A stretch of DNA of 32,000 bases from Horticoccus luteus. GTDB lineage: Bacteria; Verrucomicrobiota; Verrucomicrobiia; Opitutales; Opitutaceae. Below, in pieces: positions 1 to 19,560 of this stretch; the stretch's first letter is position 1; the number at the start of each line of letters is the position of its first letter. The stretch lies in the NCBI RefSeq assembly GCF_019464535.1, contig NZ_CP080507.1, forward strand, positions 2,070,001 through 2,102,000, in the 5' to 3' direction. The notes beneath the pieces are model-generated. The model was not told where the DNA came from. It saw nothing but the letters and a program-made list of their open reading frames with translations, and made no database searches. The translations under genes were made by a program, and so were the position numbers.

Positions 1-1554
1 GTCATGGGCGGGGTCGTCGGCCTGGTGCTCGCTCTCTGGTCCGCCGATCTCCTCGTCGCCTCGCTGTTGCGCTTCATGCCCTTCGACCTCGTCTGGCCGT
101 CCGGCCTCAGCCCCGTCGTGCTGGGCGCCACGTTTCTCTTCTGCGTGTTCGGCACCCTCCTCTTCGCGCTCGGGCCGGCGTTGAAGCTCTCCCGCGGCAA
201 CGTCCTCACCGACCTCAAGGAACAAGCCGGCGAGGACGTCGCCCCGCGCCGCTGGAAATATTTTCCGCGCCATCCCTTGGTCGTCGTGCAGATCGCGCTC
301 TCCCTCGCGCTCCTCACCGCCGCCGCCCTTTTCATCCGTGGCGCCGGCAAAGCCGCCAACGTCGACACCGGCCTCGACGTCCAACGCACCTGGCTCGTGC
401 AGGTCGACGCCAGTCTCGCCGGCCAGAATCCCGTCCGCTCCCGCGAACTCTACCACGAGCTCAATGCCCGCCTCGCCGCCCTTCCCGGCGTCGAAAGTGC
501 CAGCGTTTCCTCCCTCATTCCTTTCGGCATGGTCTCGAAAAGCAAAAAGATCTCGCGCGCCGGGCTCTATCCCGCGGCCGACGCCAAACCTTCCACCGCC
601 GCCGAGGGCCTCGCCTACTTCGCCAGTTGGAACAGCGTCGGCGCCGACTACTTCAAGTCGGTGGGACTCCCTCTCCTCCGGGGCCGGCCTTTCACCGCGG
701 CTGAGGCCACCCAGCCCGGCGGCCCGGCGGTGGCGATCATCGATGAATCGCTCGCCCGCAAACTCTGGCCCGATGGCAACGCGCTCGGCCAGCAACTCCA
801 ATACGCCGCCACGCACGCTCCCGCCGCCAAAAACTCTGGCGAGGGTGGTGGCATCAACATGAGCACCACCGCCGATTCCGGTGAAATCAAAGCCGGTGAA
901 CCTATCCAAGTCGTCGGCATCGTCCCCTCCACCCGTCACGCCCTCTTCGAGAAGGAGGTCGGCAGCAGCATCTACCTGCCCTACAGCCGAGGCTTCCAAA
1001 GCGACGTCCATTTCCTCGTGCGTTTCGCCACGCTCCCCACGGATGCCAACGCCACCACCGCCCTCCTCCGCCGCACCGTGCGCGAATTCGATGCCACGCT
1101 GCCCGTGCTCGCCATCAAATCCTTCCCGCAGCACCTCGACGGCAACATTCAGATCTGGGTCGTTCGCGCCGGGGCCGCCCTCTTCTCCGTATTCGGCGGC
1201 CTCGCCCTCGGCCTGGCTGTCGTCGGCATTTACGGCGTGAAAGCCTACGCCGTCGCCCGCCGCACCCGCGAGATCGGCATCCGCATGGCCCTCGGCGCCC
1301 AACCCGCAGTCGTCCTGAAAATGATTCTTCGCGAGGCCACGCTCATGCTCGCGTGCGGTCTCCTCCTCGGCGTCCTCCTCGCGTTCGGCACCGGCCAGCT
1401 CGTCAGCAGCCTCCTTTACCACGTCAGCGCCACCGACCCGATCGCGTTCACCGTGGCGCCGGTCGTCCTCGCCCTCGCCGCCTTCGTCGCCGCTTGGATT
1501 CCCGCCCGCCGCGCCACCCGCATCAACCCGCTCACCGCCCTCCGCTCCGAATAA
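1..1554 (+). CDS. ADOP-type duplicated FtsX/MacB-like permease, 3' part only (5' end lies left of the window)
   Basis: The reading frame is open from base 1, with no stop before the listed Met at 4. Hydrophobic TM stretches flank a large soluble domain. The second-module box RTREIGIRMALGAQ and the C-terminal tail IPARRATRINPLTALRSE are shared with the four complete paralogues downstream. TAA stop at 1552-1554. Confidence 0.85.
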   Translation, partial: VMGGVVGLVLALWSADLLVASLLRFMPFDLVWPSGLSPVVLGATFLFCVFGTLLFALGPALKLSRGNVLTDLKEQAGEDVAPRRWKYFPRHPLVVVQIALSLALLTAAALFIRGAGKAANVDTGLDVQRTWLVQVDASLAGQNPVRSRELYHELNARLAALPGVESASVSSLIPFGMVSKSKKISRAGLYPAADAKPSTAAEGLAYFASWNSVGADYFKSVGLPLLRGRPFTAAEATQPGGPAVAIIDESLARKLWPDGNALGQQLQYAATHAPAAKNSGEGGGINMSTTADSGEIKAGEPIQVVGIVPSTRHALFEKEVGSSIYLPYSRGFQSDVHFLVRFATLPTDANATTALLRRTVREFDATLPVLAIKSFPQHLDGNIQIWVVRAGAALFSVFGGLALGLAVVGIYGVKAYAVARRTREIGIRMALGAQPAVVLKMILREATLMLACGLLLGVLLAFGTGQLVSSLLYHVSATDPIAFTVAPVVLALAAFVAAWIPARRATRINPLTALRSE

Positions 1555-1692
1555 TCCACCGCGCGCGTCCGTCCAAAATCGTTCGCTTCGTTCGTTCTCT
1601 TTTCACCACCTGGTTTCTTCGCGCTGCTTCGAGCCACCTTCGTTCGCTCCCGCGCGCGTCTCATCATCCCGTCGCCCAATCCTGTTTTTCCC

Positions 1693-4119
1693 ATGCTCGC
1701 TGATTTCCGCGCCGCCGTCCGCCAGCTCGCCAAGTGCCCCGGCTTCACCGCCGTCGCCGTCCTCACCCTCGCGCTCTGCATCGGAGCCAACAGCGCCATT
1801 TTCTCGGTTCTCAACGCGATCCTCCTCAAGCCCTACCCGTGGCCCGAATCCGAGCAGCTCGTTTACGCCAACAACACCTACCCGCTCATGGGTCTGCCCG
1901 ACGCCGGCGTGTCGATTCCCGACTACCTCGACCGCCGCACCGCGAAATCCTTCGTCGACGGCGCGATCTATTCCGGCACCTCCGTCAATCTCGCCGCCGA
2001 AGGCACCGCCCCCGAACGCATCAACGCCCTTTCCGCTTCGCCTTCCCTCTTTCCGCTCCTTCGCGTTCCCCCGCTCCTCGGGCGCACGTTCACGGAAAAC
2101 GAAACCGATCCCGGCGCGCCCCGCTCCGCCGTGCTCAGCTACGATCTCTGGCAAAACCGCTTCGGCGGTGACCGCGCCATCATCGGCCGCGACATCCGGC
2201 TCAACGGCGAACCCGTCACCGTCGTCGGCGTGATGCCGCCCGGCTTCTATTTTCCCAGCCCGCGCACGCAGCTCTGGATTCCCTTTCGCATTACGCCCGC
2301 GCAGCGCACCGACGACGAGCGCGGCACCGAATTTTCCAACTTCATCGGCCGCCTCAAGCCCGGCGTCTCCCTCGCGCAAGCCCAGGCCGAACTCGACGCC
2401 CTGCAATCCGCGCTCGCCGCGCGCCTCCCCGCCCTCGCGCCGTTTTGGAAGTCGTCCGGCTTCGCGCCCCACGTCATCGGCTTTCTCGATTTCAACGTCT
2501 CCGGCGTGCGCGCCATGCTCTGGTTCGTGCAGGCCGGCGTCGTCGCCGCGCTGCTCATCGGCTGCGCGAATGTCGCCAGCCTCCTCCTCGCTCGCGCCAT
2601 GAGCCGCGAACGCGAACTCGCCATCCGCGCCGCCCTCGGCGCCTCCCGCCGCCGCCTCGTGCAATTGCTCCTCACCGAGAGCGTTGTCCTCTTCCTCGCC
2701 GGCGGCGCGCTCGGCCTCGTCGTCGCGTTGTGGGGCATCAGCGCCCTCAACCACCTCGGCCTCGATGCCATGCCCCGCGGTTACAACGTCGCGCTCGATG
2801 CCCGGGTGTTTGTCTTCACCCTCGTCTGCGCGCTCGCCAGCGGCCTCGCCTTCGGCGCCTTCCCCGCGTGGCAGGCCGCCAGCGGTCGCGCCGTCGATGC
2901 GCTCAAGGAAGCCGGCACCCGCGCCACCGCCAGCCGCCGCCACCTCTGGCTGCGCAGCGGCCTCGTCGTCGCGGAGATCGCGCTCTCCCTCATGCTCGTG
3001 GCCACCGCCGCGCTCCTCGTGCGCAGCTTCGCGCGCCTTCAGAACGTCAACCCCGGCTTCAACCCCGCCCACGTCCTCACCGCCCAACTCGCGTTGCCCG
3101 CCACGAAATACCCTACGCCTGAAAAACAGGCCGCCTTCGCCGACGCCGTGCTCGCCCAAATCCGCGCCCTTCCCGGCGTCACCGCGGCCGGCCTCACCAC
3201 CACGTTGCCTTTCTCCAACACCAACAGCCAGAGCTCCTACAACATCGTCGGCTACACGCCTCCCGCCGGCCAGCCGCAGCCGCACGGCCAGGTGCGGCAG
3301 GTCACGCCCGGGTATTTTGCCAGCCTCGGCATCCCCCTGCTGCGCGGCCGCCTCATCGATGAACGCGATACCGCGGCCCGCGCCAACGTCGTCGTCATCG
3401 ACCACTTCCTTGCCGACCGCTACTTCGCCCATCGCGATCCCGTCGGCGCCCATCTCAAAGATGACGATGGCACCAAGGACTGGGAGATCGTCGGAGTCGT
3501 CGGCACCATCAAAAATGCCAACCTCGACCAGCCCACCGCCAAGGAAACGCTCTATTATTCCTTCGCCCAATCTCCCGCGCGCAACGTCGCCCTCACCGTC
3601 AAAACCGCGCGCGACCCCGCGACGCTTATCGCGCCGCTGCGCCAGACCGTGCTCGCGCTCGACCCCGAGCAACCGCTGTTCGACGTGAAACTCATGACCG
3701 AGCGGATCGACGAAGCGCTGGTGCGCCGCCGCGCCCCCATGCTCCTCATCGGCATCTTCGCCACCGTCGCGCTCCTCCTCGCCGCGCTCGGGGTCTACGG
3801 CGTGCTCGCGTTTGCCGTCGGCCAGCGCACCCCCGAGATCGGCGTCCGCATGGCGCTCGGCGCCCAGCGCGGCGACATTCTCCGCCTGATCCTGCGCCAA
3901 GGCACGACGCTCATCGCCGTCGGCCTCGCGCTCGGCCTCGCCGGCTATCTGGCCGTGAGCCGCCTGCTCGGCCAGCTCCTCTACGACGTCGCGCCGACGG
4001 ATCCCTTGACCCTTCTCCTCGCCCCCGCGCTCCTCGCCGCCGTCGCCCTGCTCGCCAGTTTTCTCCCCGCCCGGCGCGCGACCAAAGTCGATCCGTTGAT
4101 CGCGCTCCGCTCCGAGTAG
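1693..4119 (+). CDS. ADOP-type duplicated FtsX/MacB-like ABC permease (808 aa), no ATPase domain
   Basis: ATG at 1693. N-terminal family signature [39 protein letters not shown]. There are two modules, each a large soluble domain followed by an FtsX-type TM bundle ([28 protein letters not shown] and [14 protein letters not shown]). C-terminal [17 protein letters not shown]. Confidence 0.9.
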
Positions 4120-4324
4120 CCCGCGCCTCATCCGCCGCCTCCATCCCATTCATGGGACCGCCCCGTTTCACTTTCGCTCTCAACGCCCCGCACCGCGTGC
4201 GGTCCGCAAATTTTATCTATCGATTGATTAGCTACTAACGCGCCTCGCGCGAATCCGGCATCGCGCCTGCAAGGAAGTTCCCCGCCGACGCCCGTCGCGT
4301 CCGCCTCGTCCAACTGCCCCTCCC

Positions 4325-6838
4325 ATGTTTCTCGAAAGCTTTGCCCAAGACGTCCGCGTCGGTCTCCGCGTGCTCGTCAAAGAAAAGGGCTTCTGCGCCC
4401 TCGCCGCTGGCGTGCTCGCGCTCGGCATCGCCGCCGTCGCCACCCAGTTTGCCGTCGTCGACGGCGTGCTCCTCCGCGGTTTCGCGTTCCACGATCCCGA
4501 GCAACTCACCGACGTCCAACTCGTCGACCCCACCAATTTTTCGCCGTCGAATTTCAACTCGCGCGTCACCACCGCCGACTTCGCCGAGCTCAAGGAGCAG
4601 CAGCGGTCCTTCTCCGCGTTCGTCGCTTATCTCAACGGCTCCACGGTCAACCTCACCTACAACGGCCATCCGCAACGTCTCCAAGGCGGCTACATCACCT
4701 ACGATTTCTTCCGCGCCCTCGGCGTCGCCCCGTCGCTCGGCCGCGATTTTCTGCCGGAGGACGATCGGCCCGGCGTCACGAAAGCCGTCATCCTGGGCGA
4801 TGCCCTTTGGAAACGCGATTTCGGCGGCGACCCCGGCGTCATCGGCCAGACCGTCCGCGTCAATGGCCGCGCTGGCGTGATCGTCGGCGTCATGCCGCCC
4901 AAGTTCGCGTTTCCCGCCAACGAGCAGCTCTGGATTCCCGTCAACACCGAGTTCCCCGTGCGCCCGCGGAACGATCGCAACATCAACTTCGTCTCCATCA
5001 TCGGCCGCCTGAAGCCCGGTGTTTCCCTCGCCGCCGCCAACGCCGAGATGATGACGCTCGCCCGGCACTTTTCCGTCACGTATCCGGAGAACAAACAGTT
5101 CAGCCTCGGCTGGGTGCGCCCGCTCATCGGCGCCTTCACCGGCCCCCAACTCTCCGGCCTTCTCTACACGATGCTGGCGTTCTGCCTCGGCGTCCTGCTC
5201 ATCGCCTGCGTCAACGTCATGAACATGCAGTTCGCGCGCGCCACCTTGCGCGCGAAAGAGCTCGCGGTCCGCTCCTCACTCGGCGCCACGCGCATCCGCC
5301 TCATCCGCCAGATGCTCACCGAGAGCCTGCTCCTCGCCGCCATCGGCGCCGTCGTCGGCATCGCGCTCGCCGCGTGGAGCATCGAGTGGGTGGACCGCGC
5401 CGTGCACAACCTCAACAACCCCATCCCGGCCTGGATGACGTTTCACCTCGATCTGCCTGTGCTCGTGTGCGTCGTCGGAGCCACGGTCTTCGCCGCCGTT
5501 ATCTCCGGTCTGCTCCCCGCGCTCATGGCCTCGCGCGCCAACGCCGGTGAAGTCCTCAAGGAATCCGGCCGCGGCAACACCGGCCGCCTCACCCGGGTCG
5601 TCACCAAAGGCCTCGTCGTCTTCCAAATCGTCGTCACGTGCATCCTGCTCATCGGCTCCCTCCTCCAGCTCCAGTCCATCCTCCGCCAGCAACGCACCGA
5701 CTACGGTTACGATACCTCCAGCGTCCTCTCCGCCCGCCTCGGGCTGATGGAAGGCGACTACCCCACCAACGACTCCCGCCTTCTCTTCTACGACAAGCTG
5801 CTCCGTGAACTCCGCGCCACCTCCGGCGTCGAATCCGCCGCCTTCACGAACCGTTTCCAAATGGTCTTCGCCGGCAACGGCACCATCGAAATCGAGGGCC
5901 GCGAATATAAAACCGATCAAGACCGCCCGCGCGCCAATTTCGAAAACGTCACCGACGGCTACTTCGCCACCCTCGGCCAGCGCCTCCTCGCCGGCCGCGA
6001 TTTCACGATGGACGACACCGATCCGAAAAACCCCGTCGCCATCGTCAACACCACCTTCGCGCAAAAATTCTTCGGCCACGAAAGCCCGCTCGGCCGCCGC
6101 TTCCGCCCCGTCGGAGGCAACGGCACCATCTTCGACCCCTGGCGCACCATCGTCGGCGTCGTCTCCGATGTGCGGATGCTCCCGCCCTTCAACAATCCCA
6201 ACCTCACCGACAACACCGGTTTCTACACCCCCTTCAACAGCTTCATCTACGGCGACGGCCAGCCCGCCATCAACGGCCTCCAGTTTGCCACGATCGTCGT
6301 GAAACCCCGCGGTGGTGGCCGCCCTGAAGCGTTCGACGCCGCCCTTCGCCGCGCCGTCAACCGCATCGACCCCAACCTGCCGCTCTACTTCGTCGGCACG
6401 CCGAAAACCAACATCGATGCCCAGCTCTCGGGACCGCGCGTCATCGCACTCATGTTCACCGTGTTTGGCGCCATCGCGATCATCCTCGCCTCAGTCGGCC
6501 TCTACGGCGTGACGTCTTTTTCCGTCAACCAACGCACCCAGGAATTCGGCATCCGCATGGCGCTCGGCGCCGACCACCGCACCATCCTTCGCATGGTTCT
6601 GCGCCAGGGCGCCGCCCAGATCGGGCTCGGCCTCGCGCTCGGGATTCTCCTCGCCCTCGCGATCGCCCTCATCGCGCGCGACGGCATCACGAATTTCCTC
6701 TTCCAGATCAGCCCGCACGATCCGCTGACCTACACCGCCGTCGCCCTGCTCCTCGCCGGCGTCTCCTTGCTCGCGACCCTCATCCCCGCCCGCCGCGCCA
6801 CCCGCGTCGATCCCATGGTCGCCCTCCGCGCGGAATAA
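4325..6838 (+). CDS. ADOP-like duplicated FtsX/MacB-like ABC permease (837 aa), most divergent member of the array
   Basis: ATG at 4325. Divergent N-terminus MFLESFAQDVRVGLRVLVKEKGF followed by a TM segment. First FtsX box ACVNVMNMQFARATLRAKELAVRSSLGA, second box RTQEFGIRMALGA, C-terminal PARRATRVDPMVALRAE. Two large soluble domains sit between the TM bundles. Confidence 0.88.
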   Translation: MFLESFAQDVRVGLRVLVKEKGFCALAAGVLALGIAAVATQFAVVDGVLLRGFAFHDPEQLTDVQLVDPTNFSPSNFNSRVTTADFAELKEQQRSFSAFVAYLNGSTVNLTYNGHPQRLQGGYITYDFFRALGVAPSLGRDFLPEDDRPGVTKAVILGDALWKRDFGGDPGVIGQTVRVNGRAGVIVGVMPPKFAFPANEQLWIPVNTEFPVRPRNDRNINFVSIIGRLKPGVSLAAANAEMMTLARHFSVTYPENKQFSLGWVRPLIGAFTGPQLSGLLYTMLAFCLGVLLIACVNVMNMQFARATLRAKELAVRSSLGATRIRLIRQMLTESLLLAAIGAVVGIALAAWSIEWVDRAVHNLNNPIPAWMTFHLDLPVLVCVVGATVFAAVISGLLPALMASRANAGEVLKESGRGNTGRLTRVVTKGLVVFQIVVTCILLIGSLLQLQSILRQQRTDYGYDTSSVLSARLGLMEGDYPTNDSRLLFYDKLLRELRATSGVESAAFTNRFQMVFAGNGTIEIEGREYKTDQDRPRANFENVTDGYFATLGQRLLAGRDFTMDDTDPKNPVAIVNTTFAQKFFGHESPLGRRFRPVGGNGTIFDPWRTIVGVVSDVRMLPPFNNPNLTDNTGFYTPFNSFIYGDGQPAINGLQFATIVVKPRGGGRPEAFDAALRRAVNRIDPNLPLYFVGTPKTNIDAQLSGPRVIALMFTVFGAIAIILASVGLYGVTSFSVNQRTQEFGIRMALGADHRTILRMVLRQGAAQIGLGLALGILLALAIALIARDGITNFLFQISPHDPLTYTAVALLLAGVSLLATLIPARRATRVDPMVALRAE

Positions 6839-6987
6839 CCAAGCTCCACCCTCCAACCTCCCAAGAAACTCCAACTTTCACTCATCACCCGCGATCCTTG
6901 GTCATTGCTCGATCTTCTCCGGAGCTTGGATGTTGGCGCGTGGTGCTTCTTCCGCCCCCACCCCGCCGTCCGAAATCGTAATCCGTC

Positions 6988-9396
6988 ATGCGTCACACCC
7001 TTCGCATCCTCGCCAAATCCCCCGGTTTCTCCCTCGTCGCCATCCTCGCCCTCGCCCTCGGCATCGGCGCCAACACCGCCCTCTTCAGCGTCACCGACGC
7101 CGTCTTCCTTCGCCCGCTGCCGTTCGCTCAACCTGCGCAGCTCGTGCGTCTCGCGTCCACCGATGCGCTCCACGGTTTCGATCGCGCCCCGTTTTCCCTC
7201 CCGCGATTTGAGGCCGTGCGCGAAAACCAGCAGGTTTTCCGCGACCTCGCCTGCGGCATTTTCACCGCCTTCACTCTCACCGGCCGGGGAGATCCCGTCC
7301 AAGTGCAGGGCTTCATGGCCTCGCAGGACTACCTGCCCACGCTCGGCCTCCAACCGCTTTTCGGCCGCAATTTTTCCGCCGCGGAAGACCGGCCCGGCGG
7401 CGCCCCCGTCGTCCTCGTCAGCTACAACTTTTGGCGCCAAACCTTGCACGCCGACCCCGCCGCTCTCGGCCAGTCGCTCACGATCGACGGCCAGCCTCAC
7501 ACCGTCATCGGCATCCTGCCTCCGGCGCTCTCGAGCATTCCGTTCAACCAAGTGGAGCTCTGGACGCCCCGGCCCGCCGAAGTGCCGTTTCTTCAACCTT
7601 CGCAACTCGAGGGCGGAGGCTTCTTCTTCCAAGTCATCGCCCGTTTGAAGCCCGGCGTCTCGCTCGCGCAGGCGCAGGAAAACATGAACGTCATCGCCGC
7701 CGCGTATCGCGCGGCGCACCCGTCGAATTCCGACGCTCCCAGCCACCTCGACGCGATTCCCCTCCTCGATGATCTCGTGGGCGATCAGCGCTCGACCTAC
7801 GCCCTCCTGTTCGGCGCCGTCGGGTGCGTCCTGCTCATCGCCTGTGCCAACGTCGCCAATCTCCTCCTCGCGCGCTTCTCCGCGCGCCGCAAGGAGCTCG
7901 CGCTGCGGCTGGCCCTCGGCGCCACCCGTGGGCACATCGTGCGCCAATTGTTGCTGGAAAGCACCGTCGTCGCCCTGCTCGGCGGCGCGCTCGGCGTCCT
8001 GCTGGCCCGCTGGGGCGTCGATGCGTTTGTCCGCCTTGGCCAGAATTTCATTCCGCGCTCCCAGGAAATCTCCGTCCATCTGCCCGCGCTGCTGTTCACC
8101 CTCGCCCTCGCACTCCTGACCGGCATCGGTATGGGACTCTTCCCCGCGCTCCATGCCGCCCGCACGCCGAGCGGTGACGCGTTGAAAGACGCCGGGCGCG
8201 GCTCCTCCGGCGGCCCCGCGCAAGGTCGCCTGCGGAGCGCCCTGCTCGTCGCCGAAATCGCCCTCTCGCTCGTTCTCCTCATCGCCGCCAGCCTCCTGCT
8301 CACCAGCTTCTCGCGGCTCCAACGCGTGTCGCCCGGCTTCGATCCCGATCACGTGTTCATCGGCTTCGTCAATCTCCCGCCCGCGAAATATCCCAACGCC
8401 ACCGCACTCTCCAATTTCTACCTGCACCTGCAGCAACGGCTCGCCGTGCTGCCCGGCGCGAAAGCCGTCGCGCTGGCCGATTCCCCGCCCCTGAGCGGCA
8501 ACAGCGGACCCGCGCCCATCGCCGTCGTCGGCCATCCCGTCCCGCCGCTCAGCGAACGCCCCAACGCGCTCCGCCATCTCGTCACGCCCAACAGTTTCGC
8601 CACCCTGCGCATTCCCTTGCTCCGCGGTCGCGATTTCAACGAACGCGATCTTCCCGGCAGCCCGGAAACCGTCATCATTAACGAAGCCTTCGCCCGGCAG
8701 TTTTTCCCCGGCGAAGATCCGCTGGGGCGCAAGATCATCACCGGCATGGCGCAGAAAACCGCCGAGATCGTCGGCGTTGTGGGCGACACCCACACCCTCG
8801 ACCTCACCACGCCACCGCGCGCCGAATATTTCCTCCCCGCGCTGCAACGCGGCGAAACGTTCACCTCGATCCTCGTGCGCACGGAGGGCGATCCCGCGGG
8901 CTTCGCCGCGTCGGTTCGCGCCGCGCTGCACGAAGTGGACGCCGACCAGCCACTGATCGGCGGCCAGCCGTTCGCGCAACTGATCGCGCGCACCTTCGCG
9001 GCCCGCCGTCTCGTCATGCTGCTGCTCGGCGCCTTCGCCGGGCTCGCGCTCATTCTCGCCGGCCTCGGCGTTTACAGCGTGATGGCCTATGTCGTCACCC
9101 AGCGGACAAATGAAATCGGCATCCGCATGGCGCTGGGCGCGACTCCTGGCGGCGTGCAGCGCCTCGTGCTCAAGCAGGGTTTGAGGCTCGTGGCGCTCGG
9201 CGTGTGCCTCGGGCTCAGCGGTGCACTCCTGCTCACCCAGTTCATGGCCAAAGTGCTGTTCGCTGTGCAGGCCGCCGATCCTCTGATTTACGCCGCCGCC
9301 GCCGCCTTCCTCGCCGTCGTGGCCGCTCTCGCGTGCTATTTCCCCGCCCGCCGCGCCACCCGCGTCGACCCGCTGATCGCCCTCCGCGCCGAATAA
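6988..9396 (+). CDS. ADOP-type duplicated FtsX/MacB-like ABC permease (802 aa)
   Basis: ATG at 6988. N-terminus MRHTLRILAKSPGFSLVAILALALGIGANTALFSV. Boxes ACANVANLLLARFSARRKELALRLALGA and RTNEIGIRMALGA. C-terminal [17 protein letters not shown]. Confidence 0.9.
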   Translation: MRHTLRILAKSPGFSLVAILALALGIGANTALFSVTDAVFLRPLPFAQPAQLVRLASTDALHGFDRAPFSLPRFEAVRENQQVFRDLACGIFTAFTLTGRGDPVQVQGFMASQDYLPTLGLQPLFGRNFSAAEDRPGGAPVVLVSYNFWRQTLHADPAALGQSLTIDGQPHTVIGILPPALSSIPFNQVELWTPRPAEVPFLQPSQLEGGGFFFQVIARLKPGVSLAQAQENMNVIAAAYRAAHPSNSDAPSHLDAIPLLDDLVGDQRSTYALLFGAVGCVLLIACANVANLLLARFSARRKELALRLALGATRGHIVRQLLLESTVVALLGGALGVLLARWGVDAFVRLGQNFIPRSQEISVHLPALLFTLALALLTGIGMGLFPALHAARTPSGDALKDAGRGSSGGPAQGRLRSALLVAEIALSLVLLIAASLLLTSFSRLQRVSPGFDPDHVFIGFVNLPPAKYPNATALSNFYLHLQQRLAVLPGAKAVALADSPPLSGNSGPAPIAVVGHPVPPLSERPNALRHLVTPNSFATLRIPLLRGRDFNERDLPGSPETVIINEAFARQFFPGEDPLGRKIITGMAQKTAEIVGVVGDTHTLDLTTPPRAEYFLPALQRGETFTSILVRTEGDPAGFAASVRAALHEVDADQPLIGGQPFAQLIARTFAARRLVMLLLGAFAGLALILAGLGVYSVMAYVVTQRTNEIGIRMALGATPGGVQRLVLKQGLRLVALGVCLGLSGALLLTQFMAKVLFAVQAADPLIYAAAAAFLAVVAALACYFPARRATRVDPLIALRAE

Positions 9397-9435
9397 TTTT
9401 CCGACCGGTCCAACCTGTTCGCTTAACTCTTCCTC

Positions 9436-11829
9436 ATGCTTTCCGATCTCCGTTACGCGTTGCGCGCGCTTGCCAAATCCCCCGGTTTTGCCGCCGTCGC
9501 CATTCTCACCCTCGCGCTCGGCATCGGCGCGTGCACCGCGATTTTCTCCGTCGTCAACAGCGTGCTGCTGCGGCCGCTCGCCTACGATGAGTCGGACCAG
9601 CTTGTCATCGTCCGCGAGACCGCGCTCCCGCAGTTTCCCGAATTCTCCGTTGCCCCGGGCAACTACTACGCGTGGCTCGCGCAGGCGCAAAGCTTCGAAA
9701 ATCTCGCGGCGTTCCGCAGCGCGCCCTATAACCTCACCGGCCGCGGCGAACCTCAGCGGCTCGCTGCCAAACGCGTCACCGCAAACTACCTCGCCACGCT
9801 GCGCGTCCACCTAGCCCTCGGCCGCGACTTCACCGCCGAGGAGGATGCTCCCGGCGCCAAGGCCGATGTCGCCCTCCTCACGTGGGGCTTGTGGCAGCGG
9901 CTGTTCGGCGGCCGACCCGACGCCCTCGGTGCCACGCTTCAACTCGACGGCACGCCGTTCACCATCATCGGCATCCTCCCGCAGGATTTCCAAGCCGACT
10001 CGAAAACCGAGCTGCTTACGCCGGCGGCGCTTCCCACTGACGAACGCGAGCAGCACGGCGGCCACTACCTCAGCGTGGTCGGCCGGTTGAAACCCGGGAC
10101 CACCGTCGATCAAGCGCGGGCCGATCTCACTCTCATCGCGCACCGGCTCGAACAGCAATTTCCCGACACGAACAAGAACTGGGGCGTCAAACTCGCGCCG
10201 ATGCTCGACTACGCCGTGGCCGACATCCGCCCGGTGCTCTTCGCGCTGCTCGGCGCGGTCGGTTTCCTCCTGCTCATCGCGTGCGCGAATGTCGCCAACC
10301 TTCTCCTCACCCGCGCCACCGCCCGGGCGAAGGAAATTTCCATTCGTGCCGCTCTCGGCGCCGGCCGCGGTCGCATCGTGCGCCAGCTGCTCGTCGAAAG
10401 CATTGTCCTCGCCGCCCTCGGCGCCGCGCTCGGCCTCCTGATCGCGCAGTGGGGGATGAGCGCGCTCCTGGCTTTCGCGCCCGACTCTCTTCCACGCGTG
10501 CACGAGATCGCGCTCGACGGACGCGCCCTCGGCTTTACTTGCGCGCTCGCGCTCCTCACCGGCCTCGGTTTCGGCCTCGTGCCCGCGCTCCAGGCGTCGC
10601 GCGTCAATCTCACCGAAACGCTCAAAGACGCCGGCCGCGGTTCCAGCGAAGGCCGGCACCGTCAGCGCCTCCGCAGTTCACTCGTCGTCGCCGAAGTCGC
10701 CATCGCGCTCGTGTTGCTCGTCGGCGCCGGCCTGCTCATCCGCAGCTTCGCCCGCCTCCAAAACGTCGACCCCGGTTTTCAACCGCACAACGGCTGGACG
10801 ATCAACCTCTCGCTCCCGCCCAAGAAATACGCCACGCCCGCGCAACAAGCTGCATTCGCCCAGCAGGCCGTCGACGCGCTCGCGGCCATTCCCGGCGTGC
10901 AGTCCGTCGGCGCGTCGCACGTCGTGCCGTTCACCGGCAGCGACTACATTCTCAGTTACACGATCGCCGGTCGCCCCGTGGATCCGAACTCCAGCGCGAA
11001 CTACTACGCGACCACGCCCGGCTACTTCAAGGCGATGGGCATTCCGCTCCTGCGCGGACGGTTTTTCAACGCCCACGACGACGCCACCGCGCCGCATGTT
11101 GCGATCATCAACGAATCCTTCGCGAAAAAAATCTTCGCCGGCGAAGACCCTTTGGGTAAGCGCCTCAACATCACCAACGGCCCGGAAACGTGGCGCGAGA
11201 TCGTCGGCATCGTGGGCGACGTGAAGCACTACGGGCTCGACCGCGCCTCGCCGCTGCAGACCTACGAGCCGTTCGCGCAGCAACCGTTGCCGTTTCTCAC
11301 GTTCGTGGTGCGCACGAGCGGCCCCATCCCCGGCCTGCCGGCGGCGATCCGCAACGCGATCTATTCCGTCGACAAGGAACAGCCCGTCGCCCGCATCCGT
11401 GCGCTCGACCAACTACTCGCGGAGTCCGTCGCGCGCCGGCGCTTCACGATGTTTCTCTTCGCCGTCTTCTCCGCTGTCGCGCTCCTGCTCGCGATGATCG
11501 GCATCTACGGCGTGATGGCTTACACCGTCACGCAACGCACCGGTGAGATCGGCATTCGGATGGCGCTCGGCGCGCAGCCGGGCGACGTCCTTCGCCTCGT
11601 CCTCGCGCAAGGAGGCCGGCTCGTCGCGCTCGGCCTCGCCGCCGGTCTTGTCGGCTCGCTGCTGCTGACGCATTTCCTCGCCTCGATGCTCTTCGGCGTG
11701 TCCGCGCACGACCCGCTGACGTTTGCCGTCATCGCCACCACGATCGCCGCGATCGCCGCCCTCGCCTGCTGGATTCCCGCCCGGCGCGCCACTCGCGTAG
11801 ACCCGCTGATCGCTCTCCGCGCGGATTAA
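9436..11829 (+). CDS. ADOP-type duplicated FtsX/MacB-like ABC permease (797 aa)
   Basis: ATG at 9436, only 39 nt after the preceding stop. N-terminus MLSDLRYALRALAKSPGFAAVAILTLALGIGACTAIFSV. Boxes ACANVANLLLTRATARAKEISIRAALGA and RTGEIGIRMALGA. C-terminal [17 protein letters not shown]. Confidence 0.9.
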   Translation: MLSDLRYALRALAKSPGFAAVAILTLALGIGACTAIFSVVNSVLLRPLAYDESDQLVIVRETALPQFPEFSVAPGNYYAWLAQAQSFENLAAFRSAPYNLTGRGEPQRLAAKRVTANYLATLRVHLALGRDFTAEEDAPGAKADVALLTWGLWQRLFGGRPDALGATLQLDGTPFTIIGILPQDFQADSKTELLTPAALPTDEREQHGGHYLSVVGRLKPGTTVDQARADLTLIAHRLEQQFPDTNKNWGVKLAPMLDYAVADIRPVLFALLGAVGFLLLIACANVANLLLTRATARAKEISIRAALGAGRGRIVRQLLVESIVLAALGAALGLLIAQWGMSALLAFAPDSLPRVHEIALDGRALGFTCALALLTGLGFGLVPALQASRVNLTETLKDAGRGSSEGRHRQRLRSSLVVAEVAIALVLLVGAGLLIRSFARLQNVDPGFQPHNGWTINLSLPPKKYATPAQQAAFAQQAVDALAAIPGVQSVGASHVVPFTGSDYILSYTIAGRPVDPNSSANYYATTPGYFKAMGIPLLRGRFFNAHDDATAPHVAIINESFAKKIFAGEDPLGKRLNITNGPETWREIVGIVGDVKHYGLDRASPLQTYEPFAQQPLPFLTFVVRTSGPIPGLPAAIRNAIYSVDKEQPVARIRALDQLLAESVARRRFTMFLFAVFSAVALLLAMIGIYGVMAYTVTQRTGEIGIRMALGAQPGDVLRLVLAQGGRLVALGLAAGLVGSLLLTHFLASMLFGVSAHDPLTFAVIATTIAAIAALACWIPARRATRVDPLIALRAD

Positions 11830-11968
11830 CTCACCGGCCGATTACGACTCGGGCCGGGTATGCGCCGGCCGTGCAAACACGCTCAACCAGCTGCGCCGGT
11901 GCGCACTCGTTCACCCGGCACGTCTGGCCCCGCTCAACCTCCCCCAGCCAGTCGTCGCGCCTGCTGCA

Positions 11969-13084
11969 TTATTTCAACGCGAGATACGGCTCGATCGGCC
12001 GAAAACCCGCGACGGCGCACACGCGGTCCCGCTCGCTTTCGCTGGCAAACAGATACACCGCGTAACCGCCAAAACCGCCGCCGCAATACTTCCACGCGAG
12101 CGGCTGCACGCCATCCGGCAGAATTCCCGCCGGCCCGTCGGCCTCGCCAGGCAATGGCGCCATGCCCTCGGCGCGCTGCACCGCACTCGATTGCCGCACC
12201 GCCGCGGCCAGCAGCGCCAGATCGCTGCGCCACACCGCGTCCCTCGCCGTCGCGCCCGCCCGCGCAATCGCGGCATAGTCGCGCTCGTTCTTGCAGATGC
12301 CCGGCGTGTCGTGCGGAGCGCCCGTCCAATACAGCGCCATCCTCCCGCGAAGAAATTCACCGTTGTGCTTCAACTCGAGCACCGGCCGCGGCCCGCTGCG
12401 CCACACGCACAAGCCGCTTTCCGCGATGATCACCGGGTCCTGCCAACCCACACCGAGATCGAGTTCCGCGTTCACGCCATCGCGGCCATTAAGCAGCGCC
12501 CACGCGCCGCTGCCTCCGAGACCGGCGTTGCGTTCGTAAGGCCAGTCGCGCAACGACACTGTCGGCGAAATCGCGCAATTCACCACAAACGCGCCGTCTC
12601 GCGCGTAACGCGGCACATCCAGCCAGCCGCCGGCGAAGTCCACCCGCAGCGGTGCCGCCTCGGGCGCTCGGATGAAGCGCACAATCTGCGTCGTCGAAAT
12701 CGGCGTGAACTGCGGCGGCGTCTTCGGCAGCACCACGTAACGCGCGCCCACTTCCGCGCACAGCGCTTTCTTCAACGGCGTGTATTTGTCGTCTTCCGTG
12801 ACCGCGAGAATGTCGGGCCGCAGACGCAAAAAATCCGCGCGGAAATCGATCCCTTCTTCCGTGCCCGTGCCGACCACCACATCGTCCACCATGCGCAGCC
12901 CCGCGAGCAACGCCTGCTTGTGTTCGTCCGGCAGCGAGCTGCGCCGGTGCTTGTGCAGCCACAGCACGTCGGTCGACGCGAACGACACCGTGAGGTGGTC
13001 CCCCAACGCGCGTGCCTCGCGGAAAAACTGCAGGTGCCCGGCGTGCACAATGTCGTAACAACCTGAAACAAATACGCGGATCAT
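11969..13084 (-). CDS. Bifunctional TagD-like cytidylyltransferase (N-terminal) / compact GHMP-like sugar kinase (C-terminal)
   Basis: The N-terminal ~135 aa align by eye with glycerol-3-phosphate cytidylyltransferase: RVFVSGCYDIVHAGHLQFFREA carries the HxGH motif and ISTTQIV lies near the domain end. The C-terminal ~235 aa carry GHMP-type motifs: RVDFAGGWLDVP, the NAGLGGSGA glycine loop and KYCGGGFGGY. I place the start at ATG 13084 (MIRVFVSG), where homology begins. The ORF stays open upstream to 13288, with another ATG at 13189, but that stretch is low-complexity. Confidence 0.75.
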   Translation of the reverse strand: MIRVFVSGCYDIVHAGHLQFFREARALGDHLTVSFASTDVLWLHKHRRSSLPDEHKQALLAGLRMVDDVVVGTGTEEGIDFRADFLRLRPDILAVTEDDKYTPLKKALCAEVGARYVVLPKTPPQFTPISTTQIVRFIRAPEAAPLRVDFAGGWLDVPRYARDGAFVVNCAISPTVSLRDWPYERNAGLGGSGAWALLNGRDGVNAELDLGVGWQDPVIIAESGLCVWRSGPRPVLELKHNGEFLRGRMALYWTGAPHDTPGICKNERDYAAIARAGATARDAVWRSDLALLAAAVRQSSAVQRAEGMAPLPGEADGPAGILPDGVQPLAWKYCGGGFGGYAVYLFASESERDRVCAVAGFRPIEPYLALK

Positions 13085-13314
13085 CGCCCGCAGCGCACCG
13101 ACAGAACCCGCCGCCGTCAAACACACTCCGCTCCGCAACTCAGCGCCGGCCACCGCGCCGCCGATCGGCGTCCCGATTCCGGGAATCATTCGTTCCACCG
13201 GCGGAAATTTGCCGCAGCCCCGGCCGGGTCCCGAATATTTTAAGCTTCTGATGCCGAGTAACCTAAAGCTCCGCGCTCGCGCTGGCACGCGCTTTGCAAA
13301 GAGTCACGCGCACG

Positions 13315-13980
13315 ATGATTCAACTCCGCCACATCGATCGCGTTTATCCGCTCAAAGGCGGACCCTTCTACGCGCTGCGCCACATCGACCTTGCGATCAA
13401 TGAGGGCGATTTCCTCTCGATCATGGGCCCGTCCGGATCCGGCAAGTCCACGCTCCTGCACCTCCTCGGCCTCCACGACAACGCTTGGACGGGCGAATAT
13501 CACTTCGACGGCGTGGCCGTGCACGCGCTCGACAAAAAGAAGCGCTTCGAACTCCAAAAAAAGAACATCGGCTTCGTCTTTCAAAGCTACCACCTCCTCG
13601 ACGATCTCACCGTTTACGAGAATCTCGAAATTCCTCTTTCGTATCGCGACATGCCGAAGAAAGAGCGCGAGAGCATCGTGTGCGACGCGCTGGACCGTTT
13701 TCACATCGTCGGCAAACGCGACCTTTATCCCAGCCAGCTCTCGGGCGGTCAGCAGCAACTCGTGGGCATCGCTCGCGCCCTCGTCGCCCGTCCGCGCCTG
13801 ATTCTCGCCGACGAACCCACCGGCAATCTGCACTCCGATCAAGGTCGCGAAATCATGGAGCTCTTCCGCCGCCTCAATCAGGAGGAAGGTGTGACGATCG
13901 TGCAGGTGACGCACTCCAACGAAAACGCCACCTACGGCACGCGCGTCGTGCGGCTCGCCGACGGCGTCATCGTCCCCTGA
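13315..13980 (+). CDS. Stand-alone ABC transporter ATP-binding protein, MacB/LolD family
   Basis: Walker A GPSGSGKST, Q-loop FQS, signature LSGGQQQ, Walker B LILADEPT, H-loop VTHS. ATG at 13315 (MIQLRHIDRVY) is preferred. An in-frame TTG at 13294 is the alternative start. Confidence 0.9.
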   Translation: MIQLRHIDRVYPLKGGPFYALRHIDLAINEGDFLSIMGPSGSGKSTLLHLLGLHDNAWTGEYHFDGVAVHALDKKKRFELQKKNIGFVFQSYHLLDDLTVYENLEIPLSYRDMPKKERESIVCDALDRFHIVGKRDLYPSQLSGGQQQLVGIARALVARPRLILADEPTGNLHSDQGREIMELFRRLNQEEGVTIVQVTHSNENATYGTRVVRLADGVIVP

Positions 13981-14151
13981 ACCTGTGGCCCCGCCCAGCC
14001 AGCTTTGTGTTGTGTGTGTTGTGTCGCTCCTCGCCGTGAAGCCGGTGTGCGGGTCCGCTGAACCGGCGCCCGGCTCCGCGCGCGAGGGCAAATTTTTCCG
14101 ACTCTCCCCGCGTCTTACTTCGCCGGCCGCCGGCACCTTCCTTTCTTTGCA

Positions 14152-15675
14152 ATGTTGACCGCCCGCACCGCGCTTCTCGTTTTCGTCGCCACCTTCACGT
14201 TCGCCGCCGCCTCGCCGGCGCAATCGCCGGCACCCGCCGCGCCCGCCGGTTCCACGCTTACCCTTCAGCAGGCGATCGCGCAGGCATTGCGCCAAAACCG
14301 CACCATCAAGGTCCAGGCCTACGATCCCGCCATCTCGCGCGCCAACGTGCTCACCGCCTACGGCCGCTTCGATCCCGCGCTCACTTTTCGCCGCTCCTAC
14401 AGCGAGGATAACGTCCCGTTCTCCGCCAACCCCGTCGTGAATCAGTTGACGAAAACCGATGACTACAGCCTCACGCTCGACGGCCTCTCGCCCATCGGCA
14501 CGCAATACAGTCTTGGAGCCAGCGCGGAAAACCTGCGCGGCACGTTCAACGGCTTCGCGGATAACTACGTCACGTTCGGCGGACTCACCGTCACGCAACC
14601 CTTGCTGCGCGGCTTTGGATTCGGCGCGAATCTCTACGATCTGCGCGTCGCCCGCGCCGACCGCGGCATCGCCGATTGGACTTTTCGTCAGACCGTCATC
14701 GATACGATCACCAGCGTCATCTACGCCTATAACAACCTCATCAACGCGCAGCAACAGTTGCGCGTCGCCCAGCGCTCCCGCGAACTCGCCGCCCAGCTCG
14801 TGGGCGAGAACGAAAAACGCTTTCAGGTCGGCAGCATGTCCGCGAGCGACGTCACCGAAGCCCGCGCCCGCACCGCCACCCGCGAAGAAGCCGTCATCGT
14901 CGCGGAACAAGGAGTGCGCGATTCCGACAACGCCCTCCGCCGCCTGATCGGCGAAAAAGATTTTCCGCTCAACGGTCCGCTCCTCACGGTCGAGACGCCT
15001 GACGTGCCGGCGATCACCGTCGACCCCGTGGCCGACTATCGCCGCGCCCTCGATCTCCGGCCCGACTACCGGAGTTCCCAACTCGGCGTGGCCAAGCGCG
15101 CCGCGAATCGCAGCTATGCGCGCAACCAACTTCTGCCCCGCGTGGATTTCGTCGGCAGCTACGGCTACAACGGTCTGGATCCCTCCTTCGCCGCGAGCCG
15201 CCATATGGTGGCCGACCGCGATCGCGTTTCCTACTCGGCGGGCGTCGTTGTCAGCGTGCCCCTCACCTTCGCCGACGGCCGCGGCCGCGCCCGCGCCGCC
15301 CGCCTCCAGCTCGCCCAGGCCGAAGCCGACCTCGACCGACTGGAGCAGGACATCGCACTCAACATCGCCCACGCCGCCGCCGACATCGACACCTCCCGCC
15401 GCCGCGTCGCCGCCAATCAGACGGCCTACGATCTCGCGAAACAAGCGCTCGACGCCGAGCTCAAGAAACTGCGCGCCGGCCAAAGCTCGACGTTCTTCGT
15501 GCTGAACCTGCAGGAAGAGTTGTCCTACGTCGAAACCGCTCTCTCCGCCGCCCTCGCCGCGCAACGCCGCGCCGTCGCCGCCTATGATCGCGAGATCGGC
15601 ACCACGCTCGAGCGCTACCACGTCACCCTCACGCCATCCGCCGACCGCCCCGCGACGACCACGTTGGCGCACTAA
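14152..15675 (+). CDS. TolC-family outer membrane efflux protein (OMF)
   Basis: 507 aa. Signal peptide MLTARTALLVFVATFTFAAASPAQS. Typical OEP N-terminal box TLQQAIAQALRQNRTIKV...YDPAISRANV and a second repeat (DYRRALDLRPDYRSSQLGVAKRAA). The alpha-helical, Ala/Leu/Gln/Arg-rich composition is characteristic of TolC. Confidence 0.88.
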   Translation: MLTARTALLVFVATFTFAAASPAQSPAPAAPAGSTLTLQQAIAQALRQNRTIKVQAYDPAISRANVLTAYGRFDPALTFRRSYSEDNVPFSANPVVNQLTKTDDYSLTLDGLSPIGTQYSLGASAENLRGTFNGFADNYVTFGGLTVTQPLLRGFGFGANLYDLRVARADRGIADWTFRQTVIDTITSVIYAYNNLINAQQQLRVAQRSRELAAQLVGENEKRFQVGSMSASDVTEARARTATREEAVIVAEQGVRDSDNALRRLIGEKDFPLNGPLLTVETPDVPAITVDPVADYRRALDLRPDYRSSQLGVAKRAANRSYARNQLLPRVDFVGSYGYNGLDPSFAASRHMVADRDRVSYSAGVVVSVPLTFADGRGRARAARLQLAQAEADLDRLEQDIALNIAHAAADIDTSRRRVAANQTAYDLAKQALDAELKKLRAGQSSTFFVLNLQEELSYVETALSAALAAQRRAVAAYDREIGTTLERYHVTLTPSADRPATTTLAH

Positions 15676-15912
15676 ACGCCCCTCGGTCGCTCCGCGCTCC
15701 GTCCTCGTCGCAGGCTAACGCGCCAGCATTTCGTCTTCCTGCCGCGGTCGACTCGTCGCAGCGGACCGCACTGGCGTTTGGTCGGAAACCTCCGCGCGTT
15801 TACCGTCCGTCACCGATCGGCGCCCCGCACGCGACGCAATGTCCTGTCGTTTCGTGCAACAAATTCGGCTTGGCTCGCGTCAGAAAACCCTCTGGTTCCA
15901 TTCCCACCTCCC

Positions 15913-16386
15913 ATGAAAAAATCCCTGCTTCTCCTCGCCCTCACCGGCGTTTTCACCCTCGCTCCCGCCCTCTCGCTTCCGGCGCAGGAAGCTGTCTCGC
16001 CGCACGCGGAGCGCAAAACGACGCCCCTCGGGAAAGAGATGAAAGAAATGGGCAAGGCCTTCCGCACCCTCGGCCGCCAAATCGACGACGCTTCGAAAAA
16101 CGCCGCCTCGATCAAGCTCGTCGCCACGATGCGCGAAGCTGCGGAAGCCAGCCTGCAGTATAAACCCGAAAAGACCGCTGATCTCCCCGCGGCGGATCAG
16201 GCCAAGTTCGTCGCCGACTTCCAGGCTGGCGTCAAAAATCTCATCGCAGACCTCGACAAACTCACCGCCGCACTCAAGGCCAACGACAACGCCGCCGCCG
16301 CGGCAACCCTCCGCGAAATCAAGGACGACCAGAAAAAAGGCCACAAGGAGTTCAAGAAGGAACACCCCGGTGATCGCCGCGGGTAA
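15913..16386 (+). CDS. Secreted cytochrome b562-family protein
   Basis: ATG at 15913 gives the signal peptide MKKSLLLLALTGVFTLAPALSLPAQE. The mature part aligns by eye along its length with E. coli soluble cytochrome b562. This includes an N-terminal Met region (GKEMKEMGKAFRTL) and a C-terminal His (DDQKKGHKEFKK) at the axial-ligand positions. The upstream part of the listed ORF (15778-15912) has no homology or signal and is ignored. Confidence 0.7.
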   Translation: MKKSLLLLALTGVFTLAPALSLPAQEAVSPHAERKTTPLGKEMKEMGKAFRTLGRQIDDASKNAASIKLVATMREAAEASLQYKPEKTADLPAADQAKFVADFQAGVKNLIADLDKLTAALKANDNAAAAATLREIKDDQKKGHKEFKKEHPGDRRG

Positions 16387-19330: not shown

Positions 19331-19560
19331 GACGGGTCTGAGAATGTTTACGCCGCCGGACGAGTAAACCGGTTTTCCTGACCTAACGGAGTATTTAGCA
19401 CCGGCGCAGGTGTTCATAAGCGAAGCCCATCGCCACCCTTGGTCAGTCCTTTGGCGCAGTTGCGCGGGCGGGCGTCGCGGCCGCGCCGGGTCGCCACCCG
19501 TGAATGTTCGCTCAGCGCAATCTTGCGTTCGCCCGGCGCCCTTCGCTTTGTTCGCCCGCC

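Follow-up and report, generated by a model that had tools for sequence, protein, structure and literature searches.

In soil Acidobacteriota, Opitutaceae and some Bacteroidota, few sets of paralogues have expanded as far as the genes of the ADOP (duplicated orphan permease) family. To our knowledge, the description of the family (NCBIfam TIGR03434) stresses that these genes lack adjacent ATPase genes. Here, we analyse a 32-kb stretch of DNA (hereafter the window) from Horticoccus luteus (contig NZ_CP080507.1, positions 2,070,001 to 2,102,000), in which at least five ADOP copies are found within 11.8 kb. Arrays of ADOP genes, including nearby ATP-binding proteins, have been known since 2014, when a study of Psychroflexus torquis described a 42-kb cluster in which eight to ten highly translated ADOP paralogues are mixed with transporters, among them ATP-binding proteins, and left its role open (PMC3914696). 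Furthermore, 28–33 ADOP copies are present in Dyadobacter genomes (PMC11573002). In the literature searched, we found no function and no ATPase assigned to ADOPs. Better characterised relatives are the transmembrane components of the Type VII class among ATP-binding cassette (ABC) systems, to which MacB, LolCDE and FtsX belong. Every characterised member of this class requires a nucleotide-binding domain (NBD) (PMC5985334, PMC12646458), and those members whose transmembrane domains are fused always work with a separate NBD (PMC5985334). In MacB, the major coupling helix lies between transmembrane helices (TM) 2 and 3 and relays NBD movements to the stalk helices (PMC5985334), and Escherichia coli YbbP has one coupling helix per half, each of which binds one YbbA (PMC12646458).

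Our analysis suggests that the ADOPs of the window are probably not orphans, and that one of the ATPases and the outer-membrane duct of a shared Type VII ABC machine are probably encoded 1.5–4 kb downstream of the array. The array alone adds little to what has been described, and its value lies in the linkage pattern to which it pointed. It comprises five open reading frames (ORFs) that follow one another head to tail on the + strand. The gaps between them measure 138, 205, 149 and 39 nt, and both ORFs and gaps agree fully with a first-pass annotation made from the sequence. The first paralogue, A1 (1..1554, ORF 4(1)..1554), is partial: its gene begins upstream of the window and the C-terminal 517 amino acids (aa) remain, which match TIGR03434 with 399 bits over profile positions 330–803 and contain MacB_PCD and FtsX matches. 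It is followed by A2 (1693..4119, 808 aa, 928 bits), A3 (4325..6838, 837 aa, 797 bits), which is the most divergent copy, A4 (6988..9396, 802 aa, 930 bits) and A5 (9436..11829, 797 aa, 1009 bits), which ends the array. The curated cut-off of this profile ('ADOP family duplicated permease') is 622.3 bits; A2–A5 all score above it and cover the profile end to end (positions 2–803). Each of these four proteins contains two MacB_PCD domains (PF12704) and two FtsX domains (PF02687). We also found conserved an N-terminal amphipathic helix, an RTxEIGIRMALGA box and a PARRATRVDP...ALRAE tail. The placement in the ADOP family and the layout of amphipathic helix, box motifs and duplicated FtsX domain, both of which the first-pass annotation had proposed, are thus borne out by the profile hidden Markov model searches and the motifs. 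The four complete ORFs are intact ADOP-family proteins. Five genes are a lower bound, as the window begins within A1 and at least nine genes are present in the closest relatives; the array of ancient paralogues, whose host is an Opitutaceae-like verrucomicrobium, is longer than what is seen here, and the window contains its 3' part.

About 1.5 kb downstream of the array end, we detected a gene for a solo ABC ATPase of the MacB/LolD class (13315..13980, + strand, 221 aa, Pfam ABC_tran), here called ATPase1, which is the candidate energiser of the ADOPs. A scan for ABC ATPase motifs first flagged it as ORF 13294–13980, whereas the actual product spans 13315–13980. Walker A, Q-loop, LSGGQ, Walker B and H-loop are all intact. 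The NCBIfam profiles score 240 bits for DarD, 189 for LolD, 188 for the MacB NBD, 181 for FtsE and 157 for YbbA. An assignment as DarD, LolD, FtsE or YbbA was rejected, as the respective equivalog cut-offs are 375, 308, 265 and 336 bits, and the profiles place ATPase1 within the MacB/LolD/FtsE/DarD/YbbA class and outside every named orthologous group. The protein is strongly conserved, with more than 100 cluster representatives at 83–94% identity that come mostly from Opitutaceae or Verrucomicrobia where a source is named. Starting 171 nt after ATPase1, a gene encodes a TolC-family outer-membrane factor with a signal peptide (14152..15675, + strand, 507 aa, two Pfam OEP matches, 160 bits), which is the outer-membrane component expected of a MacAB-TolC-type pump; it scores 132 bits with TIGR01844, below the cut-off of 225 for that subfamily. 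The first-pass annotation had described the ADOPs as having no NBD and an unknown energising partner. The absence of an NBD holds for the polypeptides and for positions 1–11829, where no ADOP is fused to an NBD and no ATPase gene lies between the five genes. It does not hold for the neighbourhood: the solo ATPase and the TolC-family gene lie just beyond that region, relatives have ATPases at the heads or tails of their arrays, and the ATPase family is linked to ADOP arrays, so that the view of a missing partner has to be revised.

This linkage was assessed in 80 loci from a metagenome scan for ATPase1 relatives and in a second set of 80 loci centred on ADOP genes. A co-oriented ADOP gene lies within 2.5 kb of ATPase1 in 7/15 loci with visible flanks of the group with at least 75% identity and in 22/43 loci of the group with 65–73% identity. 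ATPase and membrane-fusion protein (MFP) modules and ADOPs are thus found side by side far above chance (47–51%, compared to less than 10% according to our own rough, unmeasured estimate for a 4-Mb genome with 50 ADOP genes). A TolC-family (OEP) gene lies directly downstream of ATPase1 in 11/13 Opitutaceae-like metagenome loci and in none of the 33 others; it is also found there in four further loci (L082, L083, L086 and L090). Additionally, in the 65–73% group a second ATPase, which we term class 2 and which is 42–48% identical to class 1, is encoded directly upstream of ATPase1 in 24/47 loci. In 36 loci, a gene for an MFP stands at the head of the related array or ATPase module.

The gene orders MFP-ATPase2-ATPase1-ADOPxn and MFP-ATPase2-ADOPxn-ATPase1(-OEP) recur. 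For instance, five loci (L100, L141, L147, L155 and L159) show MFP-ATPase2-ADOPxn-ATPase1 with at least two ADOPs between the ATPases, and a compact version, MFP-ATPase2-ADOP-ATPase1-OEP, is present in L094. On the contig of the closest A5 orthologue (L093), at least four ADOP genes are followed by ATPase1 and the OEP gene. A similar locus (L082) carries, on a single strand, at least four ADOP genes, genes for a 407-aa and a 70-aa protein, the ATPase and the OEP gene, and another (L084) two ADOP genes, two small genes, a third ADOP gene, one opposite-strand gene and the ATPase. Within Acidobacteriota (L011, L052, L068 and L074), ATPases 62–66% identical to ATPase1 are encoded inside ADOP arrays with touching stop and start codons. 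MFP-ATPase2-ADOPxn is found in Opitutae and Omnitrophota loci (L002 and L079), and the head of the L089 array is alike. TolC homologues that are 46–47% identical to the one in the window follow ADOP genes in L001 and L003. In these two loci, a gene for a DUF6265-containing protein lies between the last ADOP gene and the TolC-family gene (3583–4623 in L001, an Opitutus metagenome-assembled genome; 12611–14734 in L003, Oleiharenicola sp. Vm1), with no ATPase there, and the ADOP gene of L003 appears to be frameshifted (9983–10534 and 10531–12390). Where no ADOP gene adjoins, ATPase1 can occur as ATPase1-MFP-ATPase2 with no permease at all (L112, 10001–12890; L165, 2317–5208), and in the loci examined no conventional FtsX-type permease was found beside ATPase1 relatives. 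In many loci (L116–L160), one MFP gene accompanies both MacB-class ATPases, each of which is conserved across phyla, and this suggests a heterodimeric NBD pair.

To describe the permeases themselves, we used an AlphaFold2 model of A5 that was built on a 58-sequence alignment (mean predicted local distance difference test score, pLDDT, of 85; predicted template modelling score of 0.73). The model shows eight TM helices and two periplasmic domains. Its first half comprises an amphipathic helix (residues 2–14), TM1, periplasmic domain 1, TM2, a short cytoplasmic helix (298–306), TM3 and TM4, and its second half TM5, periplasmic domain 2, TM6, another short cytoplasmic helix (702–710), TM7, TM8 and a C-terminal helix. 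The sole linker between the halves is a cytoplasmic helix (392–401). Hydropathy shows eight hydrophobic segments in every complete paralogue. Model and hydropathy agree with the Type VII layout, i.e. a 4-TM unit in which TM1 and TM2 flank a large periplasmic domain and TM2 and TM3 a coupling helix, and the ADOPs with their eight TM helices differ from the 10-TM topology with two linker helices that is found in YbbP and BceB. When the model was compared to the PDB with Foldseek, the best match was E. coli YbbP (9GE6_A, E 2e-20), and the runners-up were MacB, the Spr0694/5 permease of Streptococcus pneumoniae, LolC/E, YtrF, BceB and HrtB, with a probability of 1.00 for YbbP, MacB, LolC/E, BceB and HrtB. 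Considering the eight TM helices, the two periplasmic domains and the ranking of the structural matches, we regard ADOPs as Type VII ABC transmembrane components that are fused as a pseudo-dimer. As modelled, they are a direct 4+4 TM fusion with two different periplasmic domains of the Porter/Sabre type. This agrees with the fused MacB-type dimer with two non-identical periplasmic domains that had been read from the sequence, and our confidence in the assignment to family and fold is very high.

Each half of the A5 model contains one coupling helix, namely the short helices at residues 298–306 and 702–710. The coupling segments are among the best conserved parts of the proteins. The first half carries R(A/E)KE(I/L)x(I/L/V)Rx(A/S)LGA (xRxKEhxhRxxLGA) and the second half QRTxEIGIRMALGA; both motifs align to the TERTKEIGVRMAIGA segment of MacB, the second one residue for residue. 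In the 58-sequence alignment, R293, R297, R304 and G308 of the first segment and R701, R708, L711 and G712 of the second are invariant, so that these segments contribute eight of the 50 invariant columns. The conservation of both coupling helices thus argues for an NBD partner. Given that the helices differ from each other and that ATPases of two classes are found together, the NBDs may plausibly form a heterodimer.

Taken together, we lean towards a system in which alternative fused permeases share ATPases that are encoded in trans, and probably also an adaptor and an outer-membrane duct. Each permease would bind two copies of a separately encoded NBD via its two coupling helices. The best candidate for the NBD is the ATPase at 13315–13980, possibly as a heterodimer with the class-2 ATPase that adjoins the MFP gene at the array head. 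By mechanotransmission, the TM2 stalk helices would pass ATP binding and hydrolysis on to the periplasmic domains, and substrates would be squeezed or extracted from the periplasm or from the outer leaflet of the inner membrane. They may then leave through the adaptor and the TolC-like duct (14152–15675). In this scheme, the many permease genes would provide one shared engine with alternative 'cartridges', whose periplasmic domains account for most of the differences between them. We infer from the genomic association that the partnership between ATPases and ADOPs is fairly probable; TolC-coupled efflux as the output is plausible at best, somewhat short of an even call. A more specific version, which we offer as tentative, is that the engine is a heterodimer of the two conserved ATPases, each docked on one of the non-identical coupling helices, together with one adaptor and one TolC-like duct, and that the permease being expressed, under control of PadR or sigma-54, would set the specificity.

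Several observations weigh against this proposal. Array and ATPase1 are split by an opposite-strand gene and thus do not form one operon in the window. The 32-kb window, which stops short of the head of its array, contains no MFP of the HlyD/MacA family, which a TolC-coupled pump needs as adaptor. In L083, L086 and L090, the small ORF described below, the ATPase and the OEP gene occur with no ADOP gene within 10 kb, and the ADOP array of L090 is located about 60 kb away on the contig of the ATPase; the ATPase-OEP unit is hence found away from ADOP genes in three of the six Opitutaceae genomes that were looked up individually. The first-pass annotation had named routine flanking of ADOP orthologues by an ATPase of their own as a finding that would speak against its reading, and what we observed depends on the direction of view. 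Seen from the ATPase, about half of the loci are ADOP-linked; seen from the ADOPs, a MacB-type ATPase is found in 7/80 loci and about 90% of the loci show none within 10 kb. Finally, the pairing of ATPase1 with the ADOPs is a prediction from genomic linkage, and the sigma-54 sites that precede some of these genes are putative, being matches to a consensus.

The alternative that retains most weight, while still being doubtful, keeps the proposed engine and gives it another job than TolC-coupled efflux, similar to LolCDE, YbbAP-TesA, HrtBA, FtsEX or BceAB. Such jobs would include the extraction of lipids, lipoproteins or haem from the inner membrane, the activation of periplasmic enzymes, and the sensing of or resistance to cell-wall antibiotics. 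It fits that the closest solved structure, YbbP, belongs to a lipid-extracting complex, that alpha/beta-hydrolase genes in the L089 array recall TesA, that the window is devoid of an MFP gene, and that only the Opitutaceae-like group has the OEP partner. However, the frequent MFP genes at the heads of arrays and ATPase modules and the OEP gene after ATPase1 in nearly all Opitutaceae-like loci together make up the parts list of MacAB-TolC.

It is unlikely that the association is a coincidence, with ATPase1 and the TolC-family protein serving a permease that is encoded elsewhere and the ADOPs being powered otherwise, e.g. by the class-2 ATPase only. The opposite-strand gene in the window and the ATPase-OEP units that lie away from ADOP genes in L083, L086 and L090 would be explained in this way, and some chance adjacency is expected because ADOP genes are numerous. 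Nevertheless, the adjacency is well above the estimated chance level, which is an unmeasured baseline; the linkage recurs across phyla in different gene orders, and an alternative FtsX-type permease never adjoins in the loci examined.

Less likely still is that ADOPs are true orphans, i.e. passive devices or devices coupled to the proton-motive force, envelope sensors or scaffolds, for which the nearby ATPase would be irrelevant. The low number of ADOP-centred loci with a MacB-type ATPase nearby is in line with this explanation, as is a PadR regulator as the usual upstream neighbour (31/61 upstream ORFs). Against it stand both coupling helices, which are among the most conserved segments, the ADOP linkage of about half of the ATPase1 loci together with the ATPase1/ATPase2/MFP modules that contain no other permease, and the need for an NBD in every characterised Type VII member (PMC5985334, PMC12646458).

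The last alternative, that the array is a recent tandem amplification or consists of decaying pseudogenes, has its head-to-tail arrangement as the only point in its favour and is practically out of the question given the divergence of the paralogues, the four complete ORFs that match the profile over their full length, and orthologues with 57–78% identity in other genomes. Pairwise identity among the five paralogues is 31–47%, with 31–35% between A1 and A2–A5, 34–36% between A3 and A2, A4 or A5, and 47% between A4 and A5, which refutes a recent amplification. The proportion of synonymous differences (pS, Nei-Gojobori) is 0.43–0.52 in every pair, a saturation plateau under a strong GC bias at third codon positions; ratios of nonsynonymous to synonymous divergence (dN/dS) are thus uninformative. 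The N- and C-terminal halves within each ADOP share 25–30% identity. When comparing segments, we find 32% identity in periplasmic domain 1 and 33% in periplasmic domain 2, compared to 43% and 54% in FtsX bundles 1 and 2 and 57% in the N-terminal helix with TM1. The first-pass annotation had estimated by eye that about one third of the positions are identical, that the divergence is concentrated in the soluble domains and that the paralogues are old, and these numbers support it on all three points. That the diverged periplasmic domains form a panel of substrate or ligand specificities, as it further suggested, is a reasonable hypothesis.

Orthologues of the window paralogues were found in other arrays in a different gene order: for A5 at up to 78%, for A3 at 72% (g2 of L089), for A2 at 62% (g7 of L087) and for A1 at 57% (best match, g8 of L087). 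For A4, no close orthologue was found among the arrays examined (at most 45%). The ADOP relatives of best identity reach 55–56% in species-representative genomes and 78% in a larger protein collection. As the orthologues have 57–78% identity in shuffled order and A4 has none above 45%, we conclude that the duplications are old and that genes have been gained, lost and rearranged within the arrays. Of the 80 loci centred on ADOP genes, 30 contain at least two and 12 at least four co-oriented copies; the largest arrays have at least nine copies in 22 kb (L087) and at least eight (L089).

Related arrays also contain genes that are not permeases. We observed two alpha/beta-hydrolase genes in L089 (3707–4684 and 20019–20732), a gene for a DUF4097 protein in L087 (6658–7419), and genes for a DUF3788 protein and a glyoxalase/bleomycin-resistance-like protein in L084 (3197–4010). 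These interspersed genes may be hints at substrates or partner enzymes. In the window, the GC skew of the + strand is -0.16 to -0.27 over positions 1–16000, which include the array and the ATPase and OEP genes, compared to -0.02 to -0.11 over 17–32 kb. On the coding strand, pyrimidines are abundant in the intergenic spacers, and no Shine-Dalgarno-like purine run is found ahead of any ADOP start codon.

Regarding regulation, the window contains two putative -24/-12 elements of the sigma-54 type, both of which match the consensus on the + strand. One of them (CGGCATCGCGCCTGCA, 4256..4271) starts 69 nt upstream of the start codon of A3 and the other (TGGCACGCGCTTTGCA, 13283..13298) starts 32 nt upstream of the start codon of ATPase1. 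When both strands were scanned for YGGCAY-N5-YTGCW, these were the two matches, compared to 0.28 expected from shuffled sequences. The element at 13283 is a perfect TGGCACG-N4-TTGCA; nowhere else in the window is TGGCACG-N4-TTGCW matched exactly. An equivalent element is located upstream of the ATPase operon in L082, L083, L084/L085 and L086 (at 9658 in L082, 9534 in L083, 9722 in L084 and 9679 in L086), as a single match per locus of about 20 kb. Furthermore, the A3 orthologue in L089 is preceded by a near-consensus GGCACACACCGTGCA 75 nt upstream of its start. Over all 171 loci, 2 of 36 such motifs precede ADOP genes, where 0.4 are expected, and both are in Opitutaceae-like loci. The link between sigma-54 and ADOP genes is thus suggestive and not general. 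In L113 and L165, the ATPase1 module is followed by genes for an NtrC-type sigma-54 activator or response regulator and for a histidine kinase. The gene that usually lies upstream of an array head or of a solitary ADOP gene encodes a PadR regulator, as counted above in loci dominated by Acidobacteriota. A scan of the window for sigma-70 promoters yielded no promoter-like sites. The 19 terminator-like sites do not exceed the background of shuffled sequences (13.2 +/- 4.3), and none of them falls convincingly in a spacer. In relatives, a small ORF of 70–111 aa lies between the sigma-54-type site and the ATPase gene (L082, 9716–9928; L083, 9527–9862; L086, 9725–9976; L090, 9741–9983; L084, 9721–10017). 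Its product is rich in proline and alanine and carries a signal peptide; in three genomes, its last residues are ...HLFM or ...LLM. This small ORF is absent from the window, since the start codon of ATPase1 directly follows the promoter element.

The gene that separates the array from ATPase1 (11969..13288, - strand, at most 439 aa) lies outside the proposed system. Its product has a cytidylyltransferase-like N-terminus (Pfam CTP_transf_like, aa 74–203), and its C-terminal 235 or so aa match only a fucokinase/guanylyltransferase model weakly (E 0.004). The GC pattern at third codon positions fits the - strand frame across 11851–13200, and the gene itself probably starts within the listed ORF. 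At the equivalent position, relatives have a 407-aa gene on the + strand (L082) or an 877-aa gene on the - strand (L084), both with no Pfam matches. Two further candidates in this region were discarded: the + strand ORF 11860–12429 is a shadow ORF according to its codon-position GC pattern, and the 810-aa - strand ORF 13240–15672 has no family matches, with the ATPase and OEP genes occupying the + strand there. Directly after the TolC-like gene, overlapping genes encode a cytochrome b562-like and a Haem_bd (PF14376) protein (15778–16846), a pair shared with the near-identical Logan contig L081 (SRR34023386). The longest phosphoenolpyruvate carboxykinase (PEPCK) ORF (17504–19756, - strand) is extended at the N-terminus by about 150 arginine-rich aa that match no domain and overlap the GDSL lipase region of the opposite strand; PEPCK translation probably begins well within this ORF. 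Along with these genes for cytochrome b562, haem-binding protein, PEPCK and GDSL lipase, the remaining genes of the window (rhamnosidase, TatC, pyruvate phosphate dikinase, PheA, ScpB, IlvD and an aldolase) are unrelated to the system, and the window contains no other permease gene and no PadR gene.

If a conserved pair of ATPases, together with an adaptor and a TolC-like duct, indeed drives whole batteries of permeases, the ADOP family would become experimentally tractable, since knocking out one ATPase should inactivate the entire set. A modular route to broad specificities of efflux or extraction in soil bacteria would also be suggested. The heterodimeric engine, if correct, would explain why ADOPs look like orphans, and a layout with one engine and many heads has not been described for ABC exporters in the literature searched.

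Comparing the locus to known systems, we find some similarity with the darobactin exporter DarBCD. The best profile match of ATPase1 is DarD (NF038007), and the ADOPs weakly match the 777-aa profile of DarB (NF038008) with 17–59 bits. However, these scores are far below the equivalog cut-offs of 375 and 700 bits, and the window has no darobactin precursor and no radical-SAM gene. With MacAB-TolC, the system shares the FtsX fold, the motif of the coupling helix, the MacB_PCD domain, an ATPase of the MacB/LolD class and a TolC-family gene, as well as an HlyD-family MFP that heads the arrays of relatives. Whereas MacB is a homodimer with an N-terminally fused NBD, the ADOPs have fused transmembrane domains, NBDs of two classes encoded by separate genes and many permeases, and the MFP gene is missing from the window.

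Another analogue is E. coli YbbAP(-TesA) (PDB 9GE6–9GE8; PMC12646458), where YbbP is a single polypeptide that mimics the MacB dimer and is bound by a separate ATPase in a 2:1 ratio. The Porter/Sabre domains of YbbP are about 26% identical to each other, similar to the 25–30% between the halves of ADOPs, and both have two coupling helices. The two differ in topology, as YbbP has ten TM helices with TM5–6 as linker (PMC12646458, PMC5985334) and ADOPs have eight with a short cytoplasmic linker helix, and the sequence identity between them is only about 14–15%. Furthermore, ybbA and ybbP are adjacent single-copy genes, whereas ADOPs occur in arrays and their loci carry two classes of ATPase.

Lastly, the locus is similar to the ADOP family and the clusters known from P. 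torquis, with which it shares the full-length profile match, the twofold arrangement of MacB_PCD and FtsX and the tandem paralogues. It differs from the known ADOP clusters in its Opitutaceae-like host, which is neither an acidobacterium nor a member of the Bacteroidota, in the lack of a PadR gene in the visible array, and in the solo ATPase and TolC-family genes on its 3' side and the putative promoters of the sigma-54 type. What goes beyond the literature searched is that two classes of ATPase and an MFP, joined in Opitutaceae by a TolC-like gene, recurrently bracket ADOP arrays.

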